Source: an uncultured Verrucomicrobiota bacterium
Lineage (GTDB): Bacteria; Verrucomicrobiota; Kiritimatiellia; CAIQIC01; CAZMXS01
Direction of reading: 5' to 3'
Length of the DNA stretch: 52,846 nucleotides
NCBI GenBank assembly: GCA_964570325.1
Contig: CAZMXS010000029.1
Span: 1-52,846, forward strand
In this document: piece after piece, positions 13,277 to 35,835 of the stretch
Numbering within the stretch: position 1 is the first letter of the stretch
Layout: each line of letters begins with the position of its first letter
Notes under the pieces: model-generated
What the model was told of the DNA's origin: nothing
The model's input: only the letters and a program-made list of their open reading frames with translations
Databases searched by the model: none
Translations under genes and position numbers: made by a program

Positions 13277-14488
13277 TTACCGCAATGTCTGATTCAATTG
13301 CAGGATGGGCAGCAGAATGGAAAGGGAAATCAGCAGGACAAACAGGCCGACGCCGAGAATCAGCAACGGTTCAAGCAAGGTCAACGCGCGCGTAATCCAG
13401 CGGTCCCAGTAGTGCTGGCAGCGCGCGGCGGCGCTGTCGAGCAGTTCCTCCAACCGCCCGCTCGCCTCGCCGGCCTGGATCCAACCGGCCAGGGTCCCGG
13501 CCAGCGGATAGATGTCGCGCACCGCCTCCGCGAGACTGCGGCCCTGCCGGACCTCCTCCGCCGCCGCCACCGCCCGCGCCGCCACCCAGGCGCTGCCCGT
13601 CGCCCGGCCGGCCAGCGCAATCCCCTCCACCAGTTGCACGCCGCCGCGCAGCAGCAGGGACAAGGTACGCGCGAAGCGCAGCCCGACCAGCGCGGTATAG
13701 CTTTTTCCAATGATTGGAAAATCAAACCAGCGCCGGTTCCAACGCGCGCGCAGTTCGGGATCCTGGCGCAGGCGGTTGCGCAGCCACCAGCCGCCGGCCA
13801 CCGCGGCCAGCAGCAGCGGCGCCAGCAAGGGAAGGAGCCAGCGACCGGCGAACATCATCGCCCGGGTAAGCCACGGCAGCGGCAGGCGCGTCTCGGCCAG
13901 CATCCGTCCGATGGACGGCACCAGCACTCCCAGCATGACCAGCACCACCACCACGGCAACCGCCAACACGATGCACGGATAAAACAAGGCCGTGCGGACC
14001 CGGTCCGCAACGCGCAACTGGTCCTCCATGAACTGCGCCAACCGTTCAAGCACGGCGTCAAGATTCCCGGCACGCTCCCCGACCTCGATCGCCGCCTGCT
14101 CATACGGCGTAATCCGATCGCCGACGCGGGCCAGCGCGGACGCAAAGGAGGAGCCCTCGCGCAGCCGGTCGCGCACACCGGCCAGCGCCGGCCGGTGCGC
14201 GCCCATCTCCGGGGCATTGATCACGACATCCAGCGCCTGGGCCAACGGCAGGCCGGCCTTCAGCAAGGCGCCGGCCTCGCGATAAAACATCGCCCGCGCC
14301 TCCGCGTCGAAAGCGGTTCGCAAAAAGGGCCGGGCCGGCGTCGGCCGGGCGCCGGCGGGCGTCAGTTGTTCCGGCAGAATGCCCAGGGCGCACAGTTTTT
14401 CGCGCGCCTCTTTCGGGTCCAGCGCCTCGATCAGGCCGCGCGCCGCCCGGCCGGAATGCTCATATCCCCGGTATTCAAATGTCTTCAT
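13277..14488 (-). CDS. gspF: Type II secretion system inner-membrane platform protein GspF (PilC/GspF family)
   Basis: Two GspF-type repeats, three TM segments, N-terminus 'MKTFEYRGYEHSGRAARGLIEALDPKEAREKL'. Confidence 0.9.
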   Translation of the reverse strand: MKTFEYRGYEHSGRAARGLIEALDPKEAREKLCALGILPEQLTPAGARPTPARPFLRTAFDAEARAMFYREAGALLKAGLPLAQALDVVINAPEMGAHRPALAGVRDRLREGSSFASALARVGDRITPYEQAAIEVGERAGNLDAVLERLAQFMEDQLRVADRVRTALFYPCIVLAVAVVVVLVMLGVLVPSIGRMLAETRLPLPWLTRAMMFAGRWLLPLLAPLLLAAVAGGWWLRNRLRQDPELRARWNRRWFDFPIIGKSYTALVGLRFARTLSLLLRGGVQLVEGIALAGRATGSAWVAARAVAAAEEVRQGRSLAEAVRDIYPLAGTLAGWIQAGEASGRLEELLDSAAARCQHYWDRWITRALTLLEPLLILGVGLFVLLISLSILLPILQLNQTLR

Positions 14489-16172
14489 GCGCGCGGCCCA
14501 CGGCCCGCAGCACTTCAGCCAGGGAGGTCTCGCCCCGGCCGGCTTTTTCCAGACCGTCCACGATCATTTCCTGCATCCCCTCCCCGCGCGCCAACCGGCG
14601 CAGTTCCGTTGCCGGGCAACCTCTCCGCACCGCATCCTGGATGGCCGGGGAGGCGTTGATCAATTCGTAGATTCCGGTCCGGCCGCGATACCCGCCCAAG
14701 CATTGCGCGCAACCCGTCGCGCCCCACAACGGCCGGTCCTTCAACCGCGCGGCGAAAGCGCCCAGCGCCGCGCGTTCATCCGGCGTCGGCGCGGCCGGCC
14801 GGCGGCAGTGCGGACAGAGCCGCCGCACGAGGCGTTGGGCCAGGCAGGCCCGCAGGGCGGAGGCCAACAAGTAGGGCGCGACGCCCATGTCCACCAGGCG
14901 CATGACCGCGCCCGCTGCGTCGTTCGTATGTAACGTGCTAAACACCAGGTGGCCGGTCAGCGAAGCGCGCACCAGGATTTCGGCCGTCTCCAAATCGCGG
15001 GTCTCGCCGACCAGGATCACGTCCGGATCCTGGCGCAGGATATGCCGCAATCCCTGGGCGAAGGTCAGCCCGATCTTCGGCTTGACCTGCATTTGCCCGA
15101 TGTCCGGCAACTGGTATTCAATGGGGTCTTCGATCGTCAGGACGTTGCGGTGCGCCGTGTCGAGTTCGCGCAGTGCGGCATAAAGCGTGGTGGTCTTGCC
15201 GCTGCCGGTCGGACCGGTCACCAGCACAACGCCATGGGGTTCAGCCAGGATAGCGCGCAAGCGTTGCAGGAGCCCGTCCGGCAGGCCCAGTTCGCCCAGC
15301 GGCAGCAGAACGGATTCGCGGTTGAGCAGGCGCAGCACCACGCGTTCCCCCTCGGCCACCGGAATCGTTGAAACCCGGATGTCCAGTTCGCGCTCGCCCA
15401 GGCTCACGCGGGCGGCGCCATCCTGCGGCAGGCGTTTTTCCGCGATGTCCAAGTGCGCCATCACCTTCAGCCGCGAGATCAGCGCGGCCTCCATGCTTTT
15501 CGGGGGCGCCGTCTGACCATAGAGCCAGCCGTCAATCCGATAGCGAATCTGCAAATGATCCGCGTAGGGTTCGATGTGGATGTCCGAAGCGCGCGCCTTG
15601 ACGGCCTCCAGCAAGATCAGGTTGACCAACTGCGTCACCGGAGCCTGGTCGGAAACGCGCAGCAGGTCATCATCGCGCCGCGCGGGCGCCGTTGGCCGGG
15701 GCTGTTCCTCCGCCAGATCCTTCAGCAGGTCGCGGGCCGAGCCGGTCTTGCGGAAATAGCACTCCTCGATGGCCCGGCTGATCTCCTGCCGCGGCGCCAG
15801 CACGGGCGTCAACTCCTGCTCCAGCAGCAGTCCGAGGTCGGCCAGCGCCGTGACGTTGACGGGGTCGTTGGTCAGGGCGCAGATTCGGCCGGCCATGCGA
15901 ATCGGCAACAGCCCGTGGGCGCGGGCCCATTCGACCGGAAGCGCGGTCACCAGCGCGGGATCGAGCAACTCCGGCGCGACGGCGAGCAGCACTTCGCAGC
16001 CGAACTGCCGCCCGAGCGCGCTCAACAGGTCAGATTCGGAAATGAGGCCGTCCGCAACCAGTATTTCGCCGATCCGGCGGCGTGGCGCGGTCTGCCGCTG
16101 CCGGTCCAGGGCCGCCGCCACTTGGGCCGGCGTCACCCGGCCGGATTGGACCAGAATCTCGCCCAACAACAT
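14475..16172 (-). CDS. gspE: Type II secretion ATPase GspE
   Basis: N-terminal GspE_N domain, Walker A 'GPTGSGKTTT', Asp/His boxes, C-terminal tetracysteine CPHC...CAQC zinc motif specific to GspE; overlaps gspF by 14 nt. Confidence 0.9.
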   Translation of the reverse strand: MLLGEILVQSGRVTPAQVAAALDRQRQTAPRRRIGEILVADGLISESDLLSALGRQFGCEVLLAVAPELLDPALVTALPVEWARAHGLLPIRMAGRICALTNDPVNVTALADLGLLLEQELTPVLAPRQEISRAIEECYFRKTGSARDLLKDLAEEQPRPTAPARRDDDLLRVSDQAPVTQLVNLILLEAVKARASDIHIEPYADHLQIRYRIDGWLYGQTAPPKSMEAALISRLKVMAHLDIAEKRLPQDGAARVSLGERELDIRVSTIPVAEGERVVLRLLNRESVLLPLGELGLPDGLLQRLRAILAEPHGVVLVTGPTGSGKTTTLYAALRELDTAHRNVLTIEDPIEYQLPDIGQMQVKPKIGLTFAQGLRHILRQDPDVILVGETRDLETAEILVRASLTGHLVFSTLHTNDAAGAVMRLVDMGVAPYLLASALRACLAQRLVRRLCPHCRRPAAPTPDERAALGAFAARLKDRPLWGATGCAQCLGGYRGRTGIYELINASPAIQDAVRRGCPATELRRLARGEGMQEMIVDGLEKAGRGETSLAEVLRAVGRAHEDI

Positions 16173-16176
16173 GGGG

Positions 16177-18138
16177 TCACTTCCTTCGCAACGGGACCGG
16201 CTGCTCGACCTGCGCTTCGAAGTTGGTGGCCGGATTGACCAAATCCATTTGTTTCTCGAGGCGCTGCCGCATGGCCTGCGCCACCTTTGCGTCGGTCACG
16301 ATATGCGGAGTGACAAAGATCAACAGGTTGGTGCGCACTCGCTTGGTGGAACGGTTCTGGAACAGCCAGCCGATCAAAGGCAGGTCGCCAAGCAGCGGAA
16401 TCTTGGAGAGCGTTTTGACGGAATCCTCCCGAATCAGGCCGCTGATCGCCACCGTGGCGACATCCGGCACCGTGACCGTCGTGGAAACCTCGCGCTTGGC
16501 GATCGTCGGCGTATACTTGCCCGGTTCGCCCTCGTCAACGATCGCCTCAATGCTGGGATTCAACTCGATCTGGACCTGCCGGTCCGGGTTCACGTGCGGA
16601 GTCAGTTTGAGCTTGATGCCGACGTCCATGCGGTCAATGTTTTGGATGTAGTCGCGCGCCGTGCCGGAGCCGCCTTCAACCGTGGATTTAAGGATCGGGA
16701 TATTCTCCACGACGCTGACGCTGGCCTCGGTGTTGTTCTGCGCCCAGAGCGGGATGTTGGATAGGATCTTGACGTCTTTGTTCACCGCCAGGGCGTTGAT
16801 CAGGAACGGCACCAACGGGCGCTCAACGCCGTCCTTATCCTTGTACGTCCCGGTGGCAACGCCTAACGAGAGACCCTGTGGAAAAAGGCCCGTGGTCACC
16901 ATTTTCATCAGCTCGTCAGTTTCGCCAGGCCGGCTGCGGCCGATCACCGTGGTACTGTCCTCCGTCGGGATTTCCACCGCCGACCACTCCACGCCGAGAT
17001 CAAGATTTTTATTCAGGCCAACTTCCGCAATCAGCACTTCGACCAGCACCTGTTGCGGAATCTGGTCGAGCTGCTTGACCAGCTCCTGCACATATTGGAA
17101 ATCCCGTGGCGCGGCATCCACAATCAGGGCGTTGTTCTCAATGCTGGGCTCGATCGCGATGCGCGCGTTCTGGTCCTTGGGCGCGGTTTTGGCCAGCAGG
17201 GCGTTGAGGCTCTTGGCCGCGTCCTCCGCGGACAGGTAATTCAGGAAGATGGCGTTCAGCCGGCCATAACCAGAAGGCGGTTCGACATCCACCAGTCCAA
17301 TAATGCGCCGGATTTCGCCGATCTGAATCTGCGTGCCGACCACAACCAGGCTGTTGGCTTGTGGCGCCGGCACGATGACGACGTCGGCCGGCAGCGCGCC
17401 GCCACCCTCGACGGATTGCTGGATGTGGCGGCTGATCTGGCTGTTGGCGGAGAGCATGCCGCGCACCGCGGCGTTAAGCTGATCCGCGAGATCATCGGCG
17501 GAAGCATACTTGAGCTTCAGAATCTCCACCGCGCGCGACGCGCCGGGCCGGTCCAGTTCCGCGACAATTTGCTCGACCCGGGCAATGCTCTCAGCGGTGT
17601 CGGTGATAATCAAATGGTTGGTCGGCCCGAACGCGGAGAGCGCGCCCGTCTTGCCGCCGCGCACCATCGGCTCCAGCAGCTTGCGCAGTTCGACGGCGCT
17701 GATGTGCTCCAGCCGGATCACCTTGGTGATCAGGCCGCGCGCCGGGCGGGTCTCCTCCGCGCCAATGACCGGGACCACCTCGACCGCCTTCTCGGGCAGC
17801 GGCACCACCGTGGAGACGGCGCCCTTTTCGATCACCGTATAGCCGCTGGATTCGATGATCGAGAGGAACAAGGGAAAAACCTCGTCGGCGGGAATCTGCG
17901 CCGGGGTCACCACGGTCACCTTGCCTTTCACCCCCTCGTCAATCGTGAAGCGCCGTCCGGTCATTTCGCCGACCAGCTTGGCCAGAACCCGGATATCCAC
18001 CTGGTCAAAGTTAAAATTGACGTAGGCGCGGCCGCCGGGGGCGGCGCCCCCCGCCGGGGCGCCCGCCGGCGCGCGGGCCCCGCGCCCCGCGGCCAGCGCC
18101 AGCCACAGCCCGACCCAGGCCTGCCGACGGAAATTCAT
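16177..18138 (-). CDS. gspD: Type II secretion secretin GspD
   Basis: Signal peptide, N0/N1-N3 domains, C-terminal secretin domain ('GGL...SKIPLLGDLPLIGWLF'); start ATG overlaps the lpxA stop (ATGA). Confidence 0.85.
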   Translation of the reverse strand: MNFRRQAWVGLWLALAAGRGARAPAGAPAGGAAPGGRAYVNFNFDQVDIRVLAKLVGEMTGRRFTIDEGVKGKVTVVTPAQIPADEVFPLFLSIIESSGYTVIEKGAVSTVVPLPEKAVEVVPVIGAEETRPARGLITKVIRLEHISAVELRKLLEPMVRGGKTGALSAFGPTNHLIITDTAESIARVEQIVAELDRPGASRAVEILKLKYASADDLADQLNAAVRGMLSANSQISRHIQQSVEGGGALPADVVIVPAPQANSLVVVGTQIQIGEIRRIIGLVDVEPPSGYGRLNAIFLNYLSAEDAAKSLNALLAKTAPKDQNARIAIEPSIENNALIVDAAPRDFQYVQELVKQLDQIPQQVLVEVLIAEVGLNKNLDLGVEWSAVEIPTEDSTTVIGRSRPGETDELMKMVTTGLFPQGLSLGVATGTYKDKDGVERPLVPFLINALAVNKDVKILSNIPLWAQNNTEASVSVVENIPILKSTVEGGSGTARDYIQNIDRMDVGIKLKLTPHVNPDRQVQIELNPSIEAIVDEGEPGKYTPTIAKREVSTTVTVPDVATVAISGLIREDSVKTLSKIPLLGDLPLIGWLFQNRSTKRVRTNLLIFVTPHIVTDAKVAQAMRQRLEKQMDLVNPATNFEAQVEQPVPLRRK

Positions 18139-23771: not shown

Positions 23772-26700
23772 CTACGGCAGTGTCACGCGAAGGCGGTAGC
23801 TGCGCGCGGGAGCCGCGCCGTCATTGGTATAGCTAAGCCAACCGCCAGTGCCCGCCACATTGGTCCAGATTGGCGCCCAGTTCAGGTTATTGCTAAAGGC
23901 GCCCAAGCTCGCCTGCAGATGATAGCGGCGATTGGAGGAACTGCCCCATTGGATCAGGCCCGCCCGGGCATCCGGACTAACGCCGGCCTTAAACACCAGC
24001 CAGGAATTGGAGTCCATCGGATCGGTGTCCCAAAAGAACTCATCATGATTGGAATAGCGGTCGCCGTCGCTGTTCTGCCCGGCGTCGGCGGCATTGGTCG
24101 GCGATAATCCGTTGCGCACCTCCCAGCCGTCCGGCATTTCGTCGCGGTCGCCGTCGGGATCGAGCGGGCTGCAGCCGTACGCGGCCTCGCCGGAATTCGC
24201 CAATTCGTCCGCGTCATAATCGCCGCTCGCGCCCAGCACGACAATGGAGCGGGCGGCGGCGGCGCCAAGGTTGCCGTAACCGTCGCCGGCCCAGACGTAA
24301 ACGGTGTTCACCGCCTCCACGGTGGGATTCGCCATAATCGCGGCCAACGCATTCGTCCAGGCGCCATTGGTTGTGCCGGCGCCGTTGGCCAGGCTGTAAT
24401 AATAGCGCGCCACGCCCACGCCTTCGTCCGTGAAATTCGACCAATTGACCGACAGGCTGGCATCGAACGTGAAGGCCGCGTCGTCCCCGATGTGCACCAC
24501 GGCAGCGGCGGCGGACGGAGGCTGATTGTCGAGCGTGAACACCGCCGCGGTCACCGCCGGCGCCGCCAGCGCCAGGTTGTCCGCGATCACGCGCACGCGC
24601 ACATTGGTACTGACGGCATTGGTCGGCAGGCCGCTGTTGCCGGCGGCCCGCGTGTCCCAGGTCAGCGCCAGCCGGTTGGTGCCGGCGGCCCCGCCGCCAT
24701 TGGTCGCGGCCACGCCGCCGATCTGGTAGTAGCACTGGGTCGGGGCCAGCGCCGCCGCCGCCGTGCCCGCGGCGGCGATCATTCGCACACCGAACCAGGC
24801 GGCGCCGCCGTTGGTGCTGGCCTCCACGCGGAGCATGCCCGGCCGCCCGCCGGCATCATAGTAAGTGTTGCTGATCGTCACCAGGCCGCGGCCGTCGGTC
24901 GAAGTCTGCGCGGCAAACGGCAGCGCCACCGCCGGGACAGCGGCCCGATACAACTCGGCCCAATCCCACCAAACCGAGCCACGCCCCGCGCCATAGTTTT
25001 GCGCGCCGACCAGCCAATAGGCGTTCAACAGTTTGTTGGAAAGCTGGTGATATCCGGTGGCCGCGCCGGAATCGGTCGTAATCGCGATGGGCTGGCCGCC
25101 CGCGTCCGCGAACCGCACGGCGTAACGGCCGTCGCCCAGCAGGACGCGCATCTGGATGCCGCCGGTGGCCGTCAGATAGCGGGAAACATTGGCGATAGTC
25201 CCGACGAAGCGCTCGGTGCCGTCACTGGACGGCGTCTCCGTCTTGGTGAACAGCGCCATGGTCAGCGTGTCCGCTCCGGAATCATAGCGGCCGTGCAGGT
25301 TCACCGCATTGGTGGCCGCCCAGCCGTTGATAAATTCAGAGCAAACGCTTAATACCGCGCGCAGATCCTCGCCGGACTGCGCGGCATCCACGCGGATCGT
25401 GCTGAGTTGCGCGGCAAACACATACCATTCGCCGTCGGAATCACTCCAGGATCGCGCCTCATTCAACAGGTAGCCGGCCGTCTGCCAATCGCTGCCGGGC
25501 GGCTTCACCCGGAAACGCCCGCCCGCCTCCTCGAACTCCGCGCCGCCCCAGTCATTGTAGCGCGTCCAGGCATTGCTGGTGGCGCCATCGTCGAAATCGT
25601 CGCGCACGGCGAATGTTGAGCCGACCGGCGCGTTCGTGTACAGGAAGACAAATCGGATGTTGGGCACGTTGTTGGTCAGCGTCCGCGCGCCGCTCCCCGG
25701 CTGCGTGCCGGTCCAGGTGGTCGGATCGGTGGACACATTGGCGGTGTTGCCCAACGATTGGTTGGTGGCCGTCTTGGAGTACCGCGCGTAGCCCAGGGGA
25801 GGGCGCTGCTTGGCGCTGCCGTCTATGGAAAAATCCACCAGCAGATTGCTGGCGCCGTTGTAGGCGAAGTTGGTTGCCAGCTTGAAATAGTACCAGCCGA
25901 CCGCGCCAATGTTCAGATTGGATTCGAACACCGTTGTCCAATCGGCCACGGCCCACTGGTTGGACAGGCTGTTTAACGGCGTGTGCGCCAGCCGGATCGT
26001 ATATTCCGGCAACGTGATCGTCGGATACCCGCTGACGTAGATCGCCAGCGAGGTAATGACGCCGGACTTGCCGATCTGGCCGGCCAGGTACAGCGCCTGC
26101 AAACGGGTTTTCTTCTCATTGGTGTCCAGCGGATAGCGCCATGTGGTCAGCGTGTTCGTCCCAACCTGCGCGACGTTCGGCGCGTTAGTCTCCGGCGGCG
26201 GCGGAATGTGCGGGTTGGTGGCGACCCCCGTGTAGACGCGCGTCCGGTTCCAGTACACTTCGCCGCGGCCGTCCCAGACGTTGGCGGCGCCCAGCAGATA
26301 TGAGCCGCCGTCCAACACGTGACCCAGGGCGTGCACGCCGGTGCTGGACCCGCTCACGGGCGTGATGGTCACGCCGTTGGTGCGGTAATTGGCGCGGACG
26401 TAATAATTGGTCGTGCGCAGGACGAATTGCAGCTCGAGGCCATTGGTATCCGCGTAGGCGGACACGTTCGGGATCGTCCCCTTGAAGTGCGAATAGCCCC
26501 AACTATAGAGCCAGTTGGTCTTGGTGTAGAACTCCACGGTCAGCGAGTCATTGGCCTGGTCATAGCCGCAACGCAATGACGCCGCGTTGGAGGAATTCCA
26601 CGGATCGTACCAGACGCTGCCGGAGATGAAGGACTGAATGAGAAAGACATCCAGACCCGCGGCGTCGTTGCTGGTGCTGGCGCGGGTGACGTTCACCGTG

Positions 26701-27650
26701 TAGAGGCTGGCGGAGAAGACATATTCACGGCCCTCCGGCGAGTACTGGAGCGCTCCGGCCGTGTGATAACCGAGCGTGTAGTGGTCGGTATCGGGCAGCT
26801 TAATCCGCAGCAGCTCGTTGGACTCGACCAAGCCGTCGGCGCCCGGCTCGCCGGTGTTGGCCCAGATGTTGCTCATCGTATTGTCGCTAAACTCATCCTG
26901 GACCAGCGTCCCGGTCGCGGCCATGGCGGTGAAGATAAAATCCTGCAGGATCATCTCCACCGCGTTGGTGTCGGTCGGCGCGGCGCTCTCGAACAGCCAC
27001 ATGTTCATATAAGTCCGCTCGTCGGCATGCTCGGGCACATCGGTCCCCGTGTAGGTCCAGTCGGCGATCATGGAGCCGGTGTTCGGCGTAGGCGAATGGC
27101 CGTACCAGCTCTGCCAGCGGATGTAGTCCGGCAGCCAGGTGAACTGGTGCGTGGTGTAGTCATTGGTAAAGTTGACCAGTTTTTTTTCCTGATGCCCGGC
27201 CGTATAGTAGGGTTGGAGCGTGTAGTGCAGGTTGGTCTGCGCCTCAACGGTGAAGGCCTTCGTGAACTCGATGTCAATTTCGTTGACGCCCCATGGATTC
27301 GCATAGGTGAACAGACCGCCAACGACGTTGGTGTCCAACTGATCCACCCGGTTGGCCACATACCACGTGTACGTCCCATAGCCCATGCTGTTGGTGGAGA
27401 CCACCTCGGCGCAATAATTGGTGCCGCCGCGCTTGACGATCTTCAGATGCAGACAGCCATTGGTGTCCACCCAGACGCCGTTGGTCGCCCAATAGTTCGG
27501 CCCCGGCTCGGCCCACTGGCCCCATGTGCGGACATCCCACTTGCGCCCCGCAAACGTCACCTGATGCGCACCCGCCTCGACCGCCAGCCCACCCGCCAGC
27601 ACCGCCAGCAGCAACCCGCCGCGCCCGCCATTTCGCCACACGCACGCCAT
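23772..27650 (-). CDS. Giant secreted multidomain glycoside hydrolase: N-terminal GH16-like domain, an internally duplicated ~230-aa beta-sandwich domain, TSP3-like calcium-binding linker and terminal beta-sandwich module
   Basis: 1292 aa; signal peptide; GH16-like layout with catalytic 'NEIDIEF' (ExDxE) at aa 124-128; two paralogous domains (aa ~245-470 and ~681-900); C-terminal 'DPDGDRDEMPDGWE...NSDGDRYSNHDEF' then '...SYRLRVTLP'. Confidence 0.7.
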   Translation of the reverse strand: MACVWRNGGRGGLLLAVLAGGLAVEAGAHQVTFAGRKWDVRTWGQWAEPGPNYWATNGVWVDTNGCLHLKIVKRGGTNYCAEVVSTNSMGYGTYTWYVANRVDQLDTNVVGGLFTYANPWGVNEIDIEFTKAFTVEAQTNLHYTLQPYYTAGHQEKKLVNFTNDYTTHQFTWLPDYIRWQSWYGHSPTPNTGSMIADWTYTGTDVPEHADERTYMNMWLFESAAPTDTNAVEMILQDFIFTAMAATGTLVQDEFSDNTMSNIWANTGEPGADGLVESNELLRIKLPDTDHYTLGYHTAGALQYSPEGREYVFSASLYTVNVTRASTSNDAAGLDVFLIQSFISGSVWYDPWNSSNAASLRCGYDQANDSLTVEFYTKTNWLYSWGYSHFKGTIPNVSAYADTNGLELQFVLRTTNYYVRANYRTNGVTITPVSGSSTGVHALGHVLDGGSYLLGAANVWDGRGEVYWNRTRVYTGVATNPHIPPPPETNAPNVAQVGTNTLTTWRYPLDTNEKKTRLQALYLAGQIGKSGVITSLAIYVSGYPTITLPEYTIRLAHTPLNSLSNQWAVADWTTVFESNLNIGAVGWYYFKLATNFAYNGASNLLVDFSIDGSAKQRPPLGYARYSKTATNQSLGNTANVSTDPTTWTGTQPGSGARTLTNNVPNIRFVFLYTNAPVGSTFAVRDDFDDGATSNAWTRYNDWGGAEFEEAGGRFRVKPPGSDWQTAGYLLNEARSWSDSDGEWYVFAAQLSTIRVDAAQSGEDLRAVLSVCSEFINGWAATNAVNLHGRYDSGADTLTMALFTKTETPSSDGTERFVGTIANVSRYLTATGGIQMRVLLGDGRYAVRFADAGGQPIAITTDSGAATGYHQLSNKLLNAYWLVGAQNYGAGRGSVWWDWAELYRAAVPAVALPFAAQTSTDGRGLVTISNTYYDAGGRPGMLRVEASTNGGAAWFGVRMIAAAGTAAAALAPTQCYYQIGGVAATNGGGAAGTNRLALTWDTRAAGNSGLPTNAVSTNVRVRVIADNLALAAPAVTAAVFTLDNQPPSAAAAVVHIGDDAAFTFDASLSVNWSNFTDEGVGVARYYYSLANGAGTTNGAWTNALAAIMANPTVEAVNTVYVWAGDGYGNLGAAAARSIVVLGASGDYDADELANSGEAAYGCSPLDPDGDRDEMPDGWEVRNGLSPTNAADAGQNSDGDRYSNHDEFFWDTDPMDSNSWLVFKAGVSPDARAGLIQWGSSSNRRYHLQASLGAFSNNLNWAPIWTNVAGTGGWLSYTNDGAAPARSYRLRVTLP

Positions 27651-27660
27651 AAATGATCTC

Positions 27661-27810
27661 CTGTGTATACCGCTATTGTACCAGTATACAGATACTTGGC
27701 GTTTTTGTTAAATCACCGGATCATCCCCTGATCGCCGGATTGGACCTTGATCATCCGCCCCGCGCTCAACGCAAAGGGTAAACATACTAGTATGGTTTTA
27801 GTATACCTGT
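27661..27810. promoter_or_regulatory. Cluster of GTATAC-containing palindromes (candidate operator/promoter) between the two giant CAZyme genes
   Basis: TGTATAC-N13-GTATACA inverted repeat (27664-27690), perfect 12-bp palindrome CATACTAGTATG (27783-27794), and another GTATAC (27801-27806); lies upstream of the 23772..27650 gene. Confidence 0.3.
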
Positions 27811-27863
27811 TCAATGGCGCACGGTATAGGCCGCGGGCGGGTGCAAAAAACGCCGGCGCGGCT

Positions 27864-30800
27864 TCAAGGCACGACCAGCCGATAATAACCGCGCGGCTGG
27901 CCCGCAATGGTATTGGTCACCACCAGCTCTTCGTCCCGCGCGGCCGTGATCAGGGCGCCGACATCCTGCCAGGCCGCCGGCAGATTGGTGGCCATTTGCA
28001 CGCGATAGGTGACGCCGGATCCCGCCTGCCAGGCGAGCATGAAGCCTGGCGGATTGAAGATCGGCGCGGCCGCGCCAACATGCAGATAGGAACCGCCGTC
28101 CCAGGGATCCGTGCGCGCGCGATACTCGGACAGGTTCGGATAGCGGTCACCGTCCGAATCCAGCGCGGCATCGGCGCGCAGGCGCGGATTCAGGCCATGC
28201 GCCAACTCCCACTCGTCGTTCATCCCGTCGCTGTCGTCGTCCGCCTCCGCCCCAAACGGCACGCCGTTGCTGTTTGAATCCACCACCGCCTGCAAGGCGT
28301 CCACATACACGGTCGCCGGACCCGTCACGGGCAGGTCTATCTGCAGATACAGGTTCAACCACACCGAACTGTCATGCCGCGTCCAGTCATACGGGATCAC
28401 CAGTGTGTGCCAGGCCCCGTCGTTCGGGCAGGCGTTGGTCCCGAGGTTGTCCCAACCCGTCTCGCTGCTCTGCATGATCAGCCGGAATGACGCCCACGCC
28501 ACATTGGTCGGCGTCCGCGCTCGCAGATACACGCAATTATAGTTGGTCCACGTCAACGCATCCTGCCGCGCGCTGAAGTCCGCCATCACGGTCTTGCCGT
28601 AAGGCGACGACGAATTGTCGAAGTCCACGCGCACTCCCGCCCGTCCCTCGTATGGCTGGTTCGTGTCCAGCGTCACGGCGAACGGCGCCCCACCCCCGCC
28701 CCAACCCTCCAGCGAGCAGTTCCACCCGTACACATATCCCCGCAAATCGTCGGCATGCAGAAAATGCCGGCGCCCATTCTTCATCGCATTCAACCATCCG
28801 TAGTACGCCGACTGCACGGCCGCGTTCGAGGTCACCGTCCAGTTCACCCAGTCGCTTTGCGCCTCGGCCTCGATCTTATACCAGTTGAACCAGTTGATCG
28901 CCTTCAGCATCGGCAACTGCTCGGCCACGTCCCGCGCATTGGCGTTATCGCCGCCGATATTGAACAACTGCTCCATCCACCGGTTCTTGATGTATAATTC
29001 ATCGTTCGTCTGCTGCGGCGGCCAATAGGGATTCCCTGAACTCGGACACGACGGCCGGTAATAACCCGCGGTTTCCGGCACCATCATCGGCTTATCCCGG
29101 CCCACCGCCCAAATTGCATGGAAATCCGGGTTCCAGGTGTTGTCGCCGTTCGGCCCGTTATAGTTGCCGGTGATCTGCGACCAGAATTTATTCGTCTCCG
29201 GCCAGCAGTTGTACCACCACGGGTACACCGTCCCCCAATGGTACAGCGTCATTCCCACCCAATCCACATACGCGTCGCCCGGATAAAACGGCTCGTATGG
29301 ATCGTCCTGCAGCACGCCGCCGTCATTCTTCAGGTATCCGTCTCCATTGCTGTCCAGCAGATACCAGTCCGCGGCCGATCCGTAGCCCGCCACGTAGGTC
29401 GCCTTGGTCATGTTATTGTACGCCCCATAGGGATAGGCGCCCGCCACGTTCGGCGCCCACAGCAAGGCGGTGTTGGTCGCCGTCGCGTGCACACTGCTTG
29501 CCAGCAGGCGGAATTTCTCCCGATACAACGCCGGCCGCATCTTCCATGCATACCAGTCCCCGTTCATCTCATGCGCAAACCGGATCATGATCGGCACACC
29601 GCGGCCGTTCCAGTACGCGCACCAGTTCGCAAACGACTGACAGTCGTTGCTCGTGATGCTCCCCAACCCCGCCGTCGGCTCCAGCGTCGCCACGAACATG
29701 CCCCCCACCTCGCGCACCAGCGCGATATGGTTGCTCAACGCCAGGTAATGCGGCGCGTCCACCGGGAACACCGTGAAGTCCACGAACGCCGTATGGTCCC
29801 AGCCCACCCGCGCGTTGAACTGCAACGGCGACTCCTGGCCCCAATCGAGGTTCGCCCCGATCATGCACCCGGCCGCCGGCTCCAGGCGCGCCAGCGCCGA
29901 CACGGCCTGGGTCGTCAGGTTCAACGCGTCACACTTGAATGCCGCGTTGAGCCCCTGGCCCTCCGCCGCAATCACCGCCCGCACCTTCACCGTGTTCGTC
30001 GGCGCCCAGCCCTCCACCTCGTAATAGGTCCAGTCCGGCCCCACGCCCGAGACAACGGCAATGTTGGTCCCAATCATGTGGTCGCTGCCGTCATAATACT
30101 CCAGTTTCAGATACAGCCCGCTGAAGGTGTAGTTCGTGTCCGCGCAAAAATAGCCCGACAGCCAATACTTTGCCGCTCCGCTGCGCGCCACATCCTGATA
30201 CCAACCGCCGCTGGCGTTGGCGCCACCCCAGTTATGCAAGCTCGCCAACCACCCGTCCCCATCGTAGGAGCCCCAATTCTCCCGCGTCGCGTCGCCCCAC
30301 CGATTCCAATACTGGGCCGCCGCGTTCGCGTTGGTTGTCCCATCCGGCCCGTAACGGAAACCACCGTTCTGCAACAGCGTCGGCGCCTCGGGCGGCAGCC
30401 CACCCGTCGTCGAAAACGTGATACTGGTCGCCGCCGCCGCCAGGCATGCGCCGTTTTCCACGGCCTGCCCGGCGAAAGCGAAATACACCGTCTGGCTGTA
30501 GTCCAGCGCGGGGGTGATCGTGAAGGTGGTCTTGGCCTCGTTGACGCTGACGCCAAATGGCACCCACGCGCCTCCCGCGTGGCTCAAGCGGACCACCACC
30601 AGATTGCTCAAGGCCGCCGTCCCGTTCAGCAGCGGCAGGCCATTGGTGTGGCGCATCGCCGCGGAAAAGGCGACTTGAATCGAACTGCCCGGCGCGACGC
30701 CGGTCGCGCCATCGGCCGGCGCCACCGTGTAGGGCGGCACGTACACCAACGGCGTCCCCGCCTGCGTCAGTTCGGCGTTGTCGAACTCCGCCTGGTTGGA

Positions 30801-32972
30801 ACCCGTGCTGTGGGAATAACCCATCGAGACGCGCACGGCGTTCACGCTGGCCACATTGGCGGTGACGGAAAGACTGTGCACGATCCAGGCGGTGGACGTG
30901 GCCAGCATATCGGCATAAATGTTGCGCTCGTTGACCGCGCTGGTGGCGCTGCCGGAAAGCGCCTCGATCCGCATCCAGATGTTGGAGGTGGTCGAACGCA
31001 GGTTGCCCAGCCGGCCGGTGATGCGGAAGGTGTACTGCCCGCCGTCCAACGGCGTAACGCGGCAAACCTGATAGAAGGTACCGGAGGAGCCCGGCGTCCA
31101 AGTCGGCATGACCATGCCACCGCTCGCGGCCGGACCCGCCCACGGGGCAATCACGCAACTGCCCGACGTCTTCCACGGCGAGGGCGACTGGTCAAACGAC
31201 GCATCCTTGACCCCGGTCTTCACCAGGGTCATGCCCAACGCCGCGGTGCGCGCCACCCCGGAGGTGCACTGGCTCGCGCCGAGGGTCAGGCGATTGGTCC
31301 GGATATCGCTGGCGTACACATTGCTCGCGTTGCCGCTGAGCACCACCACGGCGCTGGTGGCGTCCAGACGCGTAACCGTGCCGACGCCAACGCCGGCGGG
31401 CAGCCCCGCGAAAGACCACTGGGATGCATTGAGACTGCCGGCAAAGGCATCGCCCTGGAGATAAACGGCGATCGGCTCGCCATTCTCGTGGCGCGCCAGG
31501 ATTTCACCATCGTCGTACATATCGAGCGGCTCGATCACCCGGTACATGGCCAGGGCATAACGTTGGCCGAACTCGCGCTGCGCGTTTCCGCTGAAATGAT
31601 GGTTATCCGGATTCCCCTCAAGGTCATCCGAGGGCGCGCAGCCCGTGCGCGCCTTGTATTGCGGCAGCGCCTGCAAGGCCGCCTGCACCGGGGCGGCGTA
31701 AGCAGAATAACTCTGGCCGGCGTTGACAAAAAAATCGCCCATTTCACCGACGATGAACGGCAAATCCGGCCGGCCGAGGTCGGCCCGCAGGTCGTCAATC
31801 AACTGGTTGAGCTTGTTGCTGTAAACGGAAGCCAGGACGGAATCGCCGCTGTCGCCCTCGCCCTGGTGCCAGATGATGCCCGCCAGGTTGCCGTAGTTCG
31901 TGGCGAACCGGACGCGGTCGAGCGTGCTCTGGTAGAGATTGGTGCCGTAATCGTTGCCCCAGCCGTCCACGTCGCCGATCGCGATGTTGTCGGTCCAGTA
32001 GATGGTCGCGGAATTGGTTTTCTGCCACCAATCAATCGCCGTGCCGCCGTGCGCGTTGGGCACCAACAGGATTTGGGTGTCCGGCCAGGCGTCCGCCAAC
32101 GTCTCGCCAAAGGTCTTGCCGGGGCCGACACCCATCCAGTTATAGACATAGTTGGGGTCGGATTCGTTGGTAATCGTGCAGTTGTAACGGAAATCGTGAT
32201 GGGTCAATGGGTCCACCGCCGCGCGCCACACTTTGCCGACGAAGGGATTATTGGTCTGGTCGGCCGGATTGCGGCGCGACAATTGCTGCACGCGCGCGTG
32301 CGGCTGGTTGGCGCCGCTGGCATAGGTGTAGGAGTAAAAGCTGTTCCAGCCGGTCATATTGGACTGGCCCAGCAGGACAAACACGTTGGTCTTCGTCACC
32401 GCCGGCGGCGGGTCGCTCTGGATCAGGCTCGCGTTGTCCCAACGGGCCACGCGATAATCACCACCCACCCCCGTACCGGCGGAAAAGCCGACTTCAACCA
32501 GAATCCGGTTGAAATTCAACCCGGAGGTGTTGGTGTAGCCCGCCGCCCAGCGCAGCCAGCCTGATGAGTTCGTAAAAGCCGCATAAATGTTATTGGTGAC
32601 GGTCTGCACGGGAGTGGCATCCTGCAGAAATTGCAGCCGCAGATAGAGGTCGGCGGTCGAGGACCGGAACTCCGCGCCGCACAGGCCGTCAACCGTAAAT
32701 TGAAACACGCTGCCATTCGAGGTGCTGACGCCGGTGACCGTCTGGCGGAACCAACCGGAGGCGCCCGCCCACCAATTGCCGAGGACGACGCCGTTGGTGC
32801 CGTCCCTGGCCGCCCACCCCGCCATCATCACCCCACCCGTGCCGGCCAGTTCCCAATGATTGGTGCCGGCTTCCATGTCGCCATTCTGCAAGAGTTCCAC
32901 CCCTGGCGCCATTGCGGCGCAGCCCCAAACCCAGACCGTCAGCCAGTGCGCGAATCTTCTCATTCGGGACAT
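27864..32972 (-). CDS. Giant secreted multidomain carbohydrate esterase/glycoside hydrolase: CBM4/9-like, SASA esterase domain, CBM-like and Ig-like domains, GH26-like domain, C-terminal TSP3-like linker and terminal beta-sandwich module
   Basis: 1702 aa; signal peptide; 'LLQNGDMEAGTNHWE' and 'LLQNGGFRYGPDG' CBM4_9-type starts; 'VFVLLGQSNMTGW...IIWHQGEGD...DNHHF' SASA/SGNH motifs; 'MIRFAHEMNGDWYAWK...MMVPETAGYY' GH26-like; ends '...DSDGMNDEWELAHGLNP...DSDGDRYPNLSEY...RGYYRLVVP'. Confidence 0.7.
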   Translation of the reverse strand: MSRMRRFAHWLTVWVWGCAAMAPGVELLQNGDMEAGTNHWELAGTGGVMMAGWAARDGTNGVVLGNWWAGASGWFRQTVTGVSTSNGSVFQFTVDGLCGAEFRSSTADLYLRLQFLQDATPVQTVTNNIYAAFTNSSGWLRWAAGYTNTSGLNFNRILVEVGFSAGTGVGGDYRVARWDNASLIQSDPPPAVTKTNVFVLLGQSNMTGWNSFYSYTYASGANQPHARVQQLSRRNPADQTNNPFVGKVWRAAVDPLTHHDFRYNCTITNESDPNYVYNWMGVGPGKTFGETLADAWPDTQILLVPNAHGGTAIDWWQKTNSATIYWTDNIAIGDVDGWGNDYGTNLYQSTLDRVRFATNYGNLAGIIWHQGEGDSGDSVLASVYSNKLNQLIDDLRADLGRPDLPFIVGEMGDFFVNAGQSYSAYAAPVQAALQALPQYKARTGCAPSDDLEGNPDNHHFSGNAQREFGQRYALAMYRVIEPLDMYDDGEILARHENGEPIAVYLQGDAFAGSLNASQWSFAGLPAGVGVGTVTRLDATSAVVVLSGNASNVYASDIRTNRLTLGASQCTSGVARTAALGMTLVKTGVKDASFDQSPSPWKTSGSCVIAPWAGPAASGGMVMPTWTPGSSGTFYQVCRVTPLDGGQYTFRITGRLGNLRSTTSNIWMRIEALSGSATSAVNERNIYADMLATSTAWIVHSLSVTANVASVNAVRVSMGYSHSTGSNQAEFDNAELTQAGTPLVYVPPYTVAPADGATGVAPGSSIQVAFSAAMRHTNGLPLLNGTAALSNLVVVRLSHAGGAWVPFGVSVNEAKTTFTITPALDYSQTVYFAFAGQAVENGACLAAAATSITFSTTGGLPPEAPTLLQNGGFRYGPDGTTNANAAAQYWNRWGDATRENWGSYDGDGWLASLHNWGGANASGGWYQDVARSGAAKYWLSGYFCADTNYTFSGLYLKLEYYDGSDHMIGTNIAVVSGVGPDWTYYEVEGWAPTNTVKVRAVIAAEGQGLNAAFKCDALNLTTQAVSALARLEPAAGCMIGANLDWGQESPLQFNARVGWDHTAFVDFTVFPVDAPHYLALSNHIALVREVGGMFVATLEPTAGLGSITSNDCQSFANWCAYWNGRGVPIMIRFAHEMNGDWYAWKMRPALYREKFRLLASSVHATATNTALLWAPNVAGAYPYGAYNNMTKATYVAGYGSAADWYLLDSNGDGYLKNDGGVLQDDPYEPFYPGDAYVDWVGMTLYHWGTVYPWWYNCWPETNKFWSQITGNYNGPNGDNTWNPDFHAIWAVGRDKPMMVPETAGYYRPSCPSSGNPYWPPQQTNDELYIKNRWMEQLFNIGGDNANARDVAEQLPMLKAINWFNWYKIEAEAQSDWVNWTVTSNAAVQSAYYGWLNAMKNGRRHFLHADDLRGYVYGWNCSLEGWGGGGAPFAVTLDTNQPYEGRAGVRVDFDNSSSPYGKTVMADFSARQDALTWTNYNCVYLRARTPTNVAWASFRLIMQSSETGWDNLGTNACPNDGAWHTLVIPYDWTRHDSSVWLNLYLQIDLPVTGPATVYVDALQAVVDSNSNGVPFGAEADDDSDGMNDEWELAHGLNPRLRADAALDSDGDRYPNLSEYRARTDPWDGGSYLHVGAAAPIFNPPGFMLAWQAGSGVTYRVQMATNLPAAWQDVGALITAARDEELVVTNTIAGQPRGYYRLVVP

Positions 32973-33021: not shown

Positions 33022-34632
33022 TCACCAATTCACCCGCTGAACCAAGGCGGCGCGCAGCACGCCCGCCATCTTCTGATGGGTAACCGCGCTGGGATGGTAA
33101 TCCGCCCCATAACCGTCCGCCGGTTCCTGCTGGGCAAACTCCAGATAAGACACATTCGTTATTCCTTTGGCCGCGAATCCGTTCACGATGTGGGTCAGCC
33201 AGGTCCGCAGGGTCGTGCGGCGATACTGGCCAATCGGCCAGTCATCGTTGGGCGTGGAACTTAAGCAGCAGAATATGGCTGGTTCGCCGTACGCGTCCCG
33301 CACCCGATTGACCAGGCCGATATAGGCGGTGCAAAAATCGGATTCGGGCGGCGACCCGATGCCGAAATCGTTCGCCCCCAGCGTGATCACGACCGCCTGG
33401 GGCACCCACTGCGCAAGATCCCACACGGATGCCGGCTCCCACGGCAGCGCGCGGGAGTACAGCTCCGGCAACGTGCCGTTGGTCGAGCCATCCACGTTGC
33501 GCCAGACACCCCGGCCGGACCACGAGATCAGTCGGCAGTCCGCCGTTACCGCCGCGGCGGCCAGCCACCCGTACGTGAGCGTCGCATTAACTGTGGCCGG
33601 ATGATAGGTGTTAGTCGCGGCGGGAGCTTCAATCCCGTACCCGCTGGTCACGGAGTCGCCGATGATTTCCAGGCGGCGCGCGGGCGCGGGCGGCGGCGTT
33701 TCCAGCATCCCGCCCTCCGGCAGTTCCAAACCCAGCACTTGAATTCGACCCACCCAGGCTTCCGTTCGCTTGACGACGCGCACCGTGTGGACGCCGGACA
33801 GCGGCTCGTCCACAATCCGGTAATGCCGCGCATGGGTCTGGAGCGGCACCCGGGTGTAAGGTCCGCCATCCACCGAAATGGCCAGGTAATTGCCGGCCTG
33901 GGGATTGGCCGGGCTGGGCCACTTGGTGATCTCGCGCACCAACAAATCCGCCTGGGCGCCGGTAAAACGGAAGGTCAGACCCACCGCCCCCCATTCGGCT
34001 TGGGGGCCTGCCGGGTCGCCCGCATCCCACCGGCCTTGATAAGCAATGCGCGGGTCGTTGGGCGCATAGCAATTGGCGCCGGCCGGACTGCGACCCGCAC
34101 CCCCCTGGCAACCGCGTTGCGCATCTTCACGCATGGCATTCGTGTAGCTCATTAAGCCTCCTGATCCCGCGGCGGGCCCCCGCTCGTGTTCCCGTACCGA
34201 CGGAGAAATCGAACCCGCAAACTGAACGGCGAAAAGGATATCGGCTTGACCGGTCCGCTGCATCGCCATGCACGCCCGATTCCCCACCAGGGGATCCGCC
34301 TGCGGGAACGCTTGCGCCTCCCGGGAGTCGCTTCCCGTCCTGTATTCCGCCCAGTTGGCAAAACCGTCGCCGCCCAAATCCGCATGAGCGCGTACACCCT
34401 GGAACCATTCGCCGGCCGTATTGGTTCCGCCCCGACGGCGCACCTGCGCCGCCACGTCCGCGCTCGTCAGCCCATCTACCCCATGCCGAAATCCGCCGTT
34501 CGTCAGCCGGTTCGCGCCAGCCGCCGCGCCCGCGAGCGCCAACCAATACCCTGCGCCGACCAATGCCATCACGACCCGCGCGCCGGCTTTCATGCGCGGC
34601 CTGTCTCCAGACGCTTTCATATTATACAACAT
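33022..34632 (-). CDS. Secreted SGNH/GDSL carbohydrate esterase (CE2-like: N-terminal beta-sandwich plus SGNH hydrolase)
   Basis: Signal peptide; 'IIGDSVTSGYG' GDS(L) block, 'ITLGANDF' block III, 'ADYHPS' catalytic Asp/His block; N-terminal jelly-roll-like region. Confidence 0.7.
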   Translation of the reverse strand: MLYNMKASGDRPRMKAGARVVMALVGAGYWLALAGAAAGANRLTNGGFRHGVDGLTSADVAAQVRRRGGTNTAGEWFQGVRAHADLGGDGFANWAEYRTGSDSREAQAFPQADPLVGNRACMAMQRTGQADILFAVQFAGSISPSVREHERGPAAGSGGLMSYTNAMREDAQRGCQGGAGRSPAGANCYAPNDPRIAYQGRWDAGDPAGPQAEWGAVGLTFRFTGAQADLLVREITKWPSPANPQAGNYLAISVDGGPYTRVPLQTHARHYRIVDEPLSGVHTVRVVKRTEAWVGRIQVLGLELPEGGMLETPPPAPARRLEIIGDSVTSGYGIEAPAATNTYHPATVNATLTYGWLAAAAVTADCRLISWSGRGVWRNVDGSTNGTLPELYSRALPWEPASVWDLAQWVPQAVVITLGANDFGIGSPPESDFCTAYIGLVNRVRDAYGEPAIFCCLSSTPNDDWPIGQYRRTTLRTWLTHIVNGFAAKGITNVSYLEFAQQEPADGYGADYHPSAVTHQKMAGVLRAALVQRVNW

Positions 34633-34788: not shown

Positions 34789-35835
34789 TCAGCGCACGGC
34801 GTGCGCAAGGCGGTAACGCAGCGGCGAGAGGCCAAAGTGGCCGCGGAAGGCCTTGATGAAGGCGGCGCTGGCGGCGAAGCCGGCGCGCTCGGCCACGTCG
34901 CCAACCGGCAGGTCGGTTTGGATCAGCAGCTTGCCGGCGCGCTCCATCCGCACGCCGCGCCGGTACTGCGCGGGCGCGACGCCAAAGAAGCGGCGGAATT
35001 CGCGGATGAAATGAAACGTGGAAAATCCCGTGGCGCGCGCGATTTCCGGCAGCGGGCGGTCGCGCTGCGCCTCGTCCGCCAACAGGCTCTTGGCGCGCAT
35101 CAGGCTGCGCTCTTTCTGGCTGTATTGAATCACCAATCCCTGTCCGGCTTTGACGGCCCGCCGCCGCAAGTCCACGGCCATCATCGCCATCAGCTCGATC
35201 CAGAAATTCACAATCCAGGCCGAGCCGCACTCGGGATAGCCGCGCAACCGGGCCAGCATGCGCGCGGCGGATTGGCGCAATTGGCTGCGTGTCGGCCGAC
35301 CGAGTTGCAGGCTGGTCTCGCGGCGAATAAAAAAGTAATCGAAGAACGGCGCGAACGTCTGCGCCAGGCGCAGGTCGGAACGGGCGTCCAGGCGGTCGGA
35401 TTCGAGATTGATGTCAAACTGGATGATCAAACCGCGCCAGGGGTGTCCCGGCGCGGCCGACCATTCTGAAGAATGGGCGTACCCCGGCCGCGCGACGAAT
35501 ATATGGCCCTCCGGACAGACCTCGCTCCGACCACTGTGCAGCGTCCGCCCGCTGCCGGAGAGCGTGTAGAAGAGTTCGCTGAACGGGTGGGTATGCCCCT
35601 GGAACGCGCCGCGGCCGACGTGATCGTTCACGCCGAAATAGATGAAGTTGACCTGAACCCCCTCGAACACGGCACGGGCATCGCCAAACCAGCGGCCGTC
35701 TATTTTGCGGATCGTGGCCGGCAGCCCCTTGGGGCGCTCCTGGCCTTCGATCACCCGGGTGGATTGCTGGGCGGGACGCTTGTTCATGCGAGCCTTCGCG
35801 CGGCCGTTACACTTATTTGTGACAACCATACTCAC
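34789..35835 (-). CDS. AraC-family transcriptional regulator (N-terminal cupin-like sensor plus C-terminal dual HTH)
   Basis: C-terminal 'ARATGFSTFHFIREFRRFFGVAPAQYR' AraC HTH signature; N-terminal cupin-like 'GHTHPFSELFYTLSGSG'; true start may be MNKRP at about 35787. Confidence 0.85.
   Translation of the reverse strand: MSMVVTNKCNGRAKARMNKRPAQQSTRVIEGQERPKGLPATIRKIDGRWFGDARAVFEGVQVNFIYFGVNDHVGRGAFQGHTHPFSELFYTLSGSGRTLHSGRSEVCPEGHIFVARPGYAHSSEWSAAPGHPWRGLIIQFDINLESDRLDARSDLRLAQTFAPFFDYFFIRRETSLQLGRPTRSQLRQSAARMLARLRGYPECGSAWIVNFWIELMAMMAVDLRRRAVKAGQGLVIQYSQKERSLMRAKSLLADEAQRDRPLPEIARATGFSTFHFIREFRRFFGVAPAQYRRGVRMERAGKLLIQTDLPVGDVAERAGFAASAAFIKAFRGHFGLSPLRYRLAHAVR

Follow-up and report, generated by a model that had tools for sequence, protein, structure and literature searches.

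Two adjacent genes in a 52,846-nucleotide contig of an uncultured Verrucomicrobiota bacterium (GenBank CAZMXS010000029.1; the whole contig is called the window below) encode exported enzymes of 1292 and 1702 amino acids (genes A and B) that end in the same C-terminal module. The module consists of a ~40-residue linker with Asp-rich loops and a ~75–85-residue beta-sandwich resembling that of fibronectin type III (FN3) domains, and it is found at the extreme C-terminus of many otherwise different exported proteins of this lineage. It is a large domain family without a Pfam or NCBIfam model, which structure-based superfamily annotations may cover. What is new here is the lineage-specific C-terminal FN3-like tag; the FN3 fold class itself is known. 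We tentatively read the module as an interchangeable C-terminal localization module that may take no part in catalysis, a reading to which we give slightly less than an even chance.

Results

When the two full-length proteins were compared by composition-adjusted BLASTP, their last ~125 residues were the sole significant similarity (E = 5e-11), all other high-scoring segment pairs having E > 1, and BLASTP of the C-termini gave 39% identity over 84 aa (E = 6e-14). The initial annotation of this DNA had proposed that both giant proteins end in the same module and are otherwise unrelated, and on both counts it was right. A hidden Markov model (HMM) of 88 positions, built from 44 sequences of other organisms and containing no window sequence, matched the extreme C-termini of both proteins over model positions 1 to 85 or 86 (i-E 1.7e-15 and 1.5e-16). 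It could be argued that two Asp-rich, beta-rich tails might resemble each other by chance or composition with no common origin, the Asp-rich part having low sequence complexity and the FN3-like features being nonspecific. The probability of this is negligible: the composition-adjusted E-value and the independent HMM matches (~1e-16 for both tails, over the full model length) rule it out, and the secondary-structure elements follow in the same order in the AlphaFold2 (AF2) models of both modules. Elsewhere in the window no further copy was found by phmmer in six frames, and the independent HMM matched no other six-frame open reading frame (ORF) at E < 3. The positions at which the initial annotation had the two tails start, 23772 and 27864, are the 3′ ends of minus-strand genes, and the modules extend to 24161 and 28241, short of the ~24260 and ~28350 that it had given.

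The bodies of the two proteins are quite different. Gene A has a Sec-type signal peptide, MACVWRNGGRGGLLLAVLAGGLAVEAGA followed by HQ (read by eye), and a Glyco_hydro_16 domain at residues 55–179 (Pfam, E = 1.5e-5), after which come long uncharacterized beta-rich stretches; the 1292-aa call is also found in Joint Genome Institute (JGI) records of the same contig (Ga0255811_11779670), a metagenome contig that is in an NCBI assembly as well. The gene B protein, to which one retrieved protein (P0001; retrieved proteins are numbered P and loci L) is 100% identical over 1699 aa, also starts with a Sec-type signal peptide, as seen in the sequence itself, and its Pfam domains are SASA at 195–477 (E = 2.7e-45), Big_5 at 750–855 and GH26 at 1110–1174.

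An exhaustive profile search returned 10,841 cluster representatives at E ≤ 1e-3, part of the weak matches being canonical FN3 domains, and 479 at E ≤ 1e-10. With the alignment as query, a word-index search added 409 sequences, unannotated except for TSP3_bac; the same search with the 125-aa module alone gave no match, the index being lossy for short queries. When 48 members were scanned singly, no consistent Pfam or NCBIfam family was found for the sandwich, and no family occurred in more than two members. In one genome per GTDB species, a scan with the pattern E[YFW][IV]AGTDPT and a 10-sequence alignment gave 362 confirmed places. The initial annotation had considered that no other proteins might share this ending; the representatives and the 362 places show that a great many do. 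A search of the full-text literature found no described C-terminal domain or sorting signal of this kind in Verrucomicrobiota-type phyla, which leaves the absence of such a description unproven.

All counts at the level of loci refer to the best 80 of the 362 places. Nine of these 80 are metagenome-assembled genomes labeled only "bacterium"; the others comprise 31 from Kiritimatiellia, 25 from Verrucomicrobia/Spartobacteria and 15 from Lentisphaerae/Victivallales, so that all loci with a named lineage (71 of 71) belong to Verrucomicrobiota in the broad sense and none to any other named phylum. The Kiritimatiellia loci include three from the isolate Pontiella sulfatireligans F21, and others come from several Pontiellaceae isolates. 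A genome has several copies of the module, and these frequently lie on neighboring genes, as seen in the window, L014, L029, L033 (three genes), L041 and L080. Many of the 120 sequences listed from the word-index search are entries of 90–160 aa that start at the Met of "DGDGMNNWQEW" within the TSP3 (thrombospondin type 3) loop. We rejected these matches (P0155–P0253) as stand-alone module proteins, as they have this internal Met start even on contigs of 0.1–2.3 Mb; such public entries have the look of 3′ ends of large genes that were cut off by wrong gene calls or frameshifts.

The position of the module is nearly fixed. The last copy lies at most 8 residues from the C-terminus in 137 of 151 retrieved proteins, mostly 0–2 residues from it, and among raw stop-to-stop ORFs in the 80 loci the same distance was found in 93 of 94, a figure in which gene calling plays no role because raw ORFs were used. 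The 14 exceptions among the retrieved proteins include five canonical FN3 arrays from other lineages and three proteins (P0041, P0099 and P0105) that are ended by one further undetected copy. Many proteins have two whole modules, or sandwich arrays that reach the C-terminus. The last strand is followed closely by the end of the chain, with 4–6 residues after its [YF][RK] in 160 of 194 tails and a terminal Pro in 108 of 230, and the consensus of the family end is [FY]-Y-R-[VIL]-x-[VL]-x(0-2)-P/E/Q-COOH. The ending Y-x-R-L-x-V-x-P proposed earlier fits neither GYYRLVVP nor SYRLRVTLP exactly.

The proteins that carry the module are diverse. In addition to GH16 and SASA/GH26 in the window, the passenger domains include Laminin_G_3, Calx-beta, Trypsin_2 (a trypsin-like protease), porphyranase/malectin, GH42/mannanase and PATR, and further passengers are NHL-repeat and beta-helix proteins; a crude test found N-termini resembling signal peptides in 44 of 55 complete ORFs. 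Seven of 10 relatives scanned have the NCBIfam domain choice-of-anchor Q (NF041518) immediately upstream of the module, with 38–53 bits against a cutoff of 25. If, as its definition has it, choice-of-anchor Q stands ahead of C-terminal sorting signals that differ from taxon to taxon, the module occupies this "anchor slot". Among the relatives P0025, P0028, P0033, P0062, P0071, P0017 and P0031, one large sub-family is built of a parallel beta-helix, choice-of-anchor Q, the sequence "YAWLQQYGLPTDGSAD" and then one or two TSP3-sandwich modules, and another has InlB-B-repeat (Flg_new_2) domains and "TPEWWLAQYGLTN" ahead of the module. A large cluster shared among module proteins was rejected as a universal feature; it is due to the upstream InlB-B-repeat/beta-helix regions of one sub-family.

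Since the two window proteins, like many of their relatives, are carbohydrate-active enzymes, the sandwich and its calcium sites might instead bind the substrate polysaccharide or the cell's own capsule or exopolysaccharide, as a new family resembling carbohydrate-binding modules (CBMs) and having no role in sorting. Weak profile matches to CBM32/discoidin-type glucanase modules (4zy9, E = 0.008) and the tandem duplication, which resembles CBM avidity, would agree with this. We nevertheless consider it improbable, because the proteases, PATR, adhesin-like beta-helix, Calx-beta and NHL-repeat passengers have no obvious glycan substrate, CBMs are not generally tied to the very end of a protein, and no aromatic platform is conserved beyond the W, Y and FY of the FN3 core.

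In most ortholog pairs the identity of the sandwich tracks that of the body, and its being about as conserved as the body indicates that the sandwich is under purifying selection; general hypervariability of the sandwich was rejected on the same ground. The 1702-aa protein is different. Between it (sandwich 27867–28127) and its ortholog P0002 (L001; sandwich 1497–1582), identity is 52–84% in the body and 68% in the linker, and it falls to 28% in the sandwich, no closer than any two family members, with the break at about "TDP". Apparently, to judge from this alignment, the sandwich alone was swapped as a cassette by recombination in the lineage of the 1702-aa protein. Such a replacement would imply that different sandwiches are functionally interchangeable.

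At the family level the linker is made up of two Asp-rich loops of bacterial TSP3/EF-hand-like type, and a short helix comes after each of them ("WExxxGL" and "E[YFW]xAGTDP"). Loop 1 of gene A has a 2-residue insertion and its loop 2 (NSDGDRYSNHDE) is near-canonical, whereas loop 1 of gene B, DDDSDGMNDEWE, is a canonical EF-hand-type DxDxDGxxDxxE and its loop 2 is DSDGDRYPNLSE; the helices of gene B are WELAHGL and EYRARTDP. By eye, EF-hand-type spacing is present in three of the four loops. The linker was earlier described as a DxDGD stretch of thrombospondin type 3 or dockerin-like kind; the loops look like a degenerate bacterial TSP3 repeat, and there is no Dockerin_1 match at E ≤ 10. TSP3_bac scores above its cutoff in the ortholog P0002 (32.8 bits) and in the relatives P0108 and P0153. 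In the AF2 models the helices fall at 11–16, 24–28 and 38–43 in gene A (model m36c5ec34fcab; predicted local distance difference test [pLDDT] about 91) and at 9–14, 22–26 and 36–41 in gene B (model m264660ce8e7b; pLDDT 92–95).

The linker also aligns to positions ~93–157 of the NCBIfam Amuc_1099 family, and residues 1143–1217 of gene A have sub-threshold NCBIfam matches to Amuc_1099_fam and MtsD. Against the Amuc_1099 model (NF042425; 321 positions, cutoff 50 bits), the window proteins reach 20.7 and 24.2 bits, at positions 105–153 only, and P0025 and P0028 just reach the cutoff when two stretches are summed. We rejected membership of the window proteins in this family, as the homology is confined to the linker and model positions 158–321 are unmatched.

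The sandwich, which starts at "TDPxDxxS[YWL]L" and takes up the rest of the chain, was modeled together with the linker from a 124-sequence alignment, giving a mean pLDDT of 86.4 and 81.2 for the two modules. Both models show three short helices followed by beta strands, with no strand contributed by the linker; DSSP assigned six clear strands to the module of the 1292-aa protein and five strands plus two short bridges to that of the 1702-aa protein. The strand order and core residues of FN3 are present, namely the W in strand B, the Y in C, "ytD" in E and the "[FY]YRV"/tyrosine corner in F, and the best sequence match in the PDB is 3mpc, an Fn3-like protein of Clostridium thermocellum (E = 1e-3). 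Foldseek against the PDB gave nothing significant (best E = 0.095), and Pfam fn3 (PF00041) and related fn3 models matched neither the window proteins at E ≤ 1 nor the 48 family members. The last strand of the profile, "FYRV", aligns to FN3 strand F, and 3mpc continues for ~30 residues past the match; likewise, canonical FN3 arrays found by the profile go on with "HYRVSAxNxxGxGxxS..." through the FG loop and the G strand, whereas the module proteins stop there. In tandem arrays, the period of the module-type sandwich is 71–86 aa as compared to 97–103 aa for canonical FN3. By models and alignment, the sandwich differs from the usual FN3 domain of seven strands and 90–100 aa with a C-terminal G strand. 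Given this register, the short array period and the six strands, the sandwich appears to be a six-stranded FN3 variant that lacks the G strand and ends at strand F.

A sandwich of this kind might be completed in the manner of chaperone-usher pilins, by a donor strand that another subunit or an outer-membrane receptor supplies, and so polymerize or tether the proteins into surface fibers linked to the Verrucomicrobial secretin/pilus-like systems. The end of the protein right after strand F, the shorter array period, the six strands with none from the linker, the homology of the linker to the Amuc_1099 "pilus-like system" family and a secretin gene adjacent in one lineage (see below) could all be read in this way. 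In our judgment such strand complementation is nonetheless very improbable: the copies inside arrays are just as short, which makes a complete, self-sufficient fold of six strands probable, the AF2 monomers are confident with no donor strand present (pLDDT 81–86), and no donor sequence and no usher- or chaperone-like gene was found in the 80 loci.

The features discussed are collected in Table 1. Genes A and B, which are probably separate transcription units, form a polysaccharide-utilization cluster with the CE2 acetyl-esterase and the AraC-family regulator. An AraC gene also adjoins the P0002 ortholog in L001 (2363–3370); in the window the esterase sits in between. This suggests a conserved, regulated unit for the utilization of a polysaccharide, perhaps acetylated mannan or glucan. 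In L004, a small PEP-CTERM protein is encoded (3958–4623) 0.7 kb upstream of the module-bearing homolog P0003, so exosortase sorting would be used by these bacteria in parallel with the module.

Table 1. Features of the window and of the related secretin loci
Feature	Position	Strand	Description
Gene A	23772..27650	minus	1292-aa exported protein: signal peptide, GH16, beta-rich regions, C-terminal module
Gene A module	23775-24161	minus	129 aa
Gene A linker	24042..24161	minus	40 aa, DPDGDRDEMPDGWEVRNGLSPTNAADAGQNSDGDRYSNHD; two loops of TSP3/EF-hand-like type, with a short helix after each (translation)
Gene A sandwich	23775..24041	minus	89 aa, EFFWDTDPMDSNSWL ... ARSYRLRVTLP; stop codon 23772-23774; six-stranded, FN3-like
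Gene B	27864..32972	minus	1702-aa exported protein: signal peptide, SASA esterase, Big_5, GH26, CBM-like region, C-terminal module
Gene B module	27867-28241	minus	125 aa
Gene B linker	28128..28241	minus	38 aa, DDDSDGMNDEWELAHGLNPRLRADAALDSDGDRYPNLS (translation)
Gene B sandwich	27867..28127	minus	87 aa, EYRARTDPWDGGSYLHV ... PRGYYRLVVP; stop codon 27864-27866
gspF	13277-14488	minus	Pfam T2SSF
gspE	14475-16172	minus	Pfam T2SSE
gspD secretin	16177-18138	minus	Pfam Secretin/Secretin_N/GspD_N0
CE2 acetyl-esterase	33022-34632	minus	Upstream of gene B; Pfam CE2_N + GDSL; no module
AraC-family regulator	34789-35835	minus	Upstream of gene B; Pfam HTH_18/AraC; no module
Secretin + cargo loci	L035 37-6258; L041 1308-9974; L057 276-6261; L080 555-9982		Verrucomicrobia; cargo proteins of 1000-1400 aa with NHL repeats, ending in the module

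The window also encodes the core of a type II secretion system (T2SS), gspD-gspE-gspF, which directly adjoins lpxA and fabZ and is a candidate exporter; genes for a pseudopilin, gspC, gspL or gspM were not found in the 52.8-kb contig. In four related loci (L035, L041, L057 and L080), the gene just upstream of one or two module-bearing giant genes, and on their strand, encodes a divergent secretin. This secretin resembles GspD and PilQ, scoring below every NCBIfam cutoff, and a locus of this type may be a dedicated secretin-cargo operon. The protein Amuc_1099 of Akkermansia, to whose family the linker aligns, is encoded beside the secretin Amuc_1098, and both are enriched in membrane/cell-envelope fractions (PMC5332112). 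In the pectate lyases PelI and Pel3, loops of the Fn3 domain are determinants of secretion by the T2SS (PMC7949064). We regard the T2SS core of the window, the secretin loci, the Amuc_1099 homology and the Pel precedent as leads to a possible link with secretins, the link to the T2SS itself being weak.

Three further observations concern the DNA around genes A and B. Gene B contains an antisense ORF of 1148 aa (29118–32564, plus strand), rich in Arg, Gly and Pro, which is a high-GC shadow ORF and not a gene. The 213-bp region between the two genes (27651–27863) is AT-rich as compared to the 62.5% GC of the contig and has a sigma-70-like site, TTAACA-17-TATACT, on the minus strand (27711–27683). 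Right after the stop codon of gene B there is a GC-rich palindrome and then a T-run.

Discussion

The size of the family, its lock on the C-terminus, the diversity of its passengers and its place in the anchor slot are as expected of a localization tag. The common localization tag that the initial annotation had suggested for the two enzymes thus gains from the family as a whole, and we favor, tentatively, an interchangeable module for localization, as opposed to a part of catalysis; its function is read from sequence. The same claim has a weaker side, in that tandem copies and a few internal ones are atypical of a pure export signal.

The most serious competitor is a passive structural element, i.e., a stalk, a spacer or a C-terminal cap that stabilizes large exoproteins or shields their C-terminus from proteolysis. 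Under this explanation the module would be terminal because a sandwich lacking its G strand is hard to follow by another fold, or because cassettes at the 3′ end recombine easily. The FN3 fold is generic, arrays of 3–8 copies are stalk-like, no partner gene was found in the 80 loci, cassette exchange is seen, and the terminal residue, usually Pro or polar, would suit evasion of proteases. However, a spacer has no reason to be last in 93 of 94 ORFs, as no further domain follows that it could set apart; conservation treats the TSP3 linker and the sandwich as a single unit, which is modeled with high confidence; the module sits in the slot after choice-of-anchor Q; and it is limited to one superphylum, while FN3 spacers are universal. 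We thus find a purely structural role rather unlikely.

A number of observations weigh against a localization module. Tandem arrays reach up to eight sandwiches, and the true exceptions to the terminal position are one protein with internal copies only (P0011) and three with N-terminal copies only (P0043, P0113 and P0119). FN3-like modules are common as inert spacers in carbohydrate-active enzymes, and structure or recombination could account for the C-terminal lock. No conserved partner gene emerged when the 6-kb flanks of the 80 loci were compared all against all, the largest cluster of module-free ORFs occurring in 5 of 80. Calcium binding by the linker, which we infer from the EF-hand-like DxDxDGxxDxxE motifs, is weakened by the scores for TSP3_bac (PF18884; a 22-residue repeat with a cutoff of 25 bits), as the 1702-aa protein reaches 16.3 bits and the 1292-aa protein has no Pfam match to it at E ≤ 10. 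The four secretin loci are one orthologous group and so a single evolutionary event. As to the T2SS, its genes in the window are separated from gene A by five housekeeping genes (lpxA, fabZ, a helicase, P-II and amtB) and do not form one operon with it; there is no T2SS gene within 6 kb of the module in 76 of the 80 loci and no gspE or gspF homolog in any of the 80; and we know of no common tag shared by T2SS substrates. The link to the T2SS of the window, named earlier as a candidate exporter, is weak.

If the module does act in localization, we envisage that the proteins would be exported by Sec and folded in the periplasm, where the linker, loaded with calcium, and the sandwich would form a common handle by which they are delivered to the outer face of the envelope or kept there. 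This handle, functionally analogous to a dockerin or to the C-terminal domain (CTD) of type IX secretion system (T9SS) substrates, might act either in translocation across the outer membrane itself or in retention afterwards. The most likely mode would be non-covalent, calcium-dependent docking to an envelope receptor after translocation through a secretin of T2SS type, and the free edge of the last strand, left by the missing G strand, would be a plausible binding surface. A bolder proposal, which we consider unlikely as it stands, is that the module may be the recognition/attachment signal of a CTD-dependent sorting pathway that only Verrucomicrobiota, Kiritimatiellia and Lentisphaeria have. 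As a functional counterpart of the T9SS CTD, the module would be served by outer-membrane channels of secretin type, with the last strand of the G-less FN3 sandwich completed by, or docked on, a surface receptor. If true, this would explain how enzymes and adhesins of 100–400 kDa are exported and displayed.

In soils, oceans and guts, complex and sulfated polysaccharides have major degraders in the Verrucomicrobiota, Kiritimatiellia and Lentisphaeria. The module marks thousands of their exported proteins and may thereby offer a sequence feature from which to predict which proteins of these mostly uncultured bacteria are secreted or at the surface, as well as a testable entry to their sorting machinery, as the T9SS CTD was for Bacteroidota. 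A model of it would fill a gap in annotation, as these tails are now unannotated or called as fragment "proteins" of 90–160 aa. Should the module be only a structural cap, the gain would be limited to this better annotation.

Among known systems, the FN3 domains of bacterial extracellular enzymes (e.g., 3mpc) have the same beta-sandwich strand order and core motifs as the module, whose sandwich, however, is ~20–25 residues shorter, ends before the FG loop and G strand, has a conserved TSP3 lead, is locked to the C-terminus and gives no Pfam fn3-type match. The linker resembles bacterial TSP3 (PF18884), Amuc_1099 and MtsD in its Asp-rich loops; elsewhere, TSP3 repeats are not tied to a terminal sandwich. 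In PelI and Pel3 of Dickeya and Pectobacterium, an FN3 domain is likewise found on a secreted polysaccharide-degrading enzyme, and its loops are part of the T2SS signal (PMC7949064). Unlike the module, it is not a tag shared among substrates, and the likeness is that of the generic FN3 fold. The Pel Fn3 domain is, moreover, N-terminal.

Type I dockerins are also C-terminal on carbohydrate-active enzymes, several per organism, and also consist of two duplicated segments of ~20 residues with an EF-hand-like loop (DxDxDGxxDxxE) and a helix; in the module, the loops resemble bacterial TSP3 instead, and a beta-sandwich then ends the protein. We rejected a type I dockerin (PF00404) given the missing Dockerin_1 match and the finding of no cohesin-like or otherwise recurrent partner in the 80 loci. 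Nor is the module a PEP-CTERM signal (PF07589, TIGR02595) or a T9SS CTD, as the initial annotation had correctly judged: the ends GYYRLVVP and SYRLRVTLP have no transmembrane helix and no basic tail, and no model of either kind matches. In particular, T9SS CTD membership was rejected for want of any match to PF18962, TIGR04183 or TIGR04131 in the window proteins or the 48 members, and Verrucomicrobiota are not known to have a T9SS. The module differs from this domain in its conserved motifs, in the calcium-loop repeats that precede it and in its tandem copies. Still, the T9SS CTD (Por_Secre_tail, TIGR04183) of Bacteroidota is likewise a sandwich of ~80 residues, Ig/FN3-like, at the extreme C-terminus, poorly conserved in sequence and carried within one lineage by many unrelated Sec-exported enzymes and adhesins, and it too was first noticed as a shared tail on many hydrolases.

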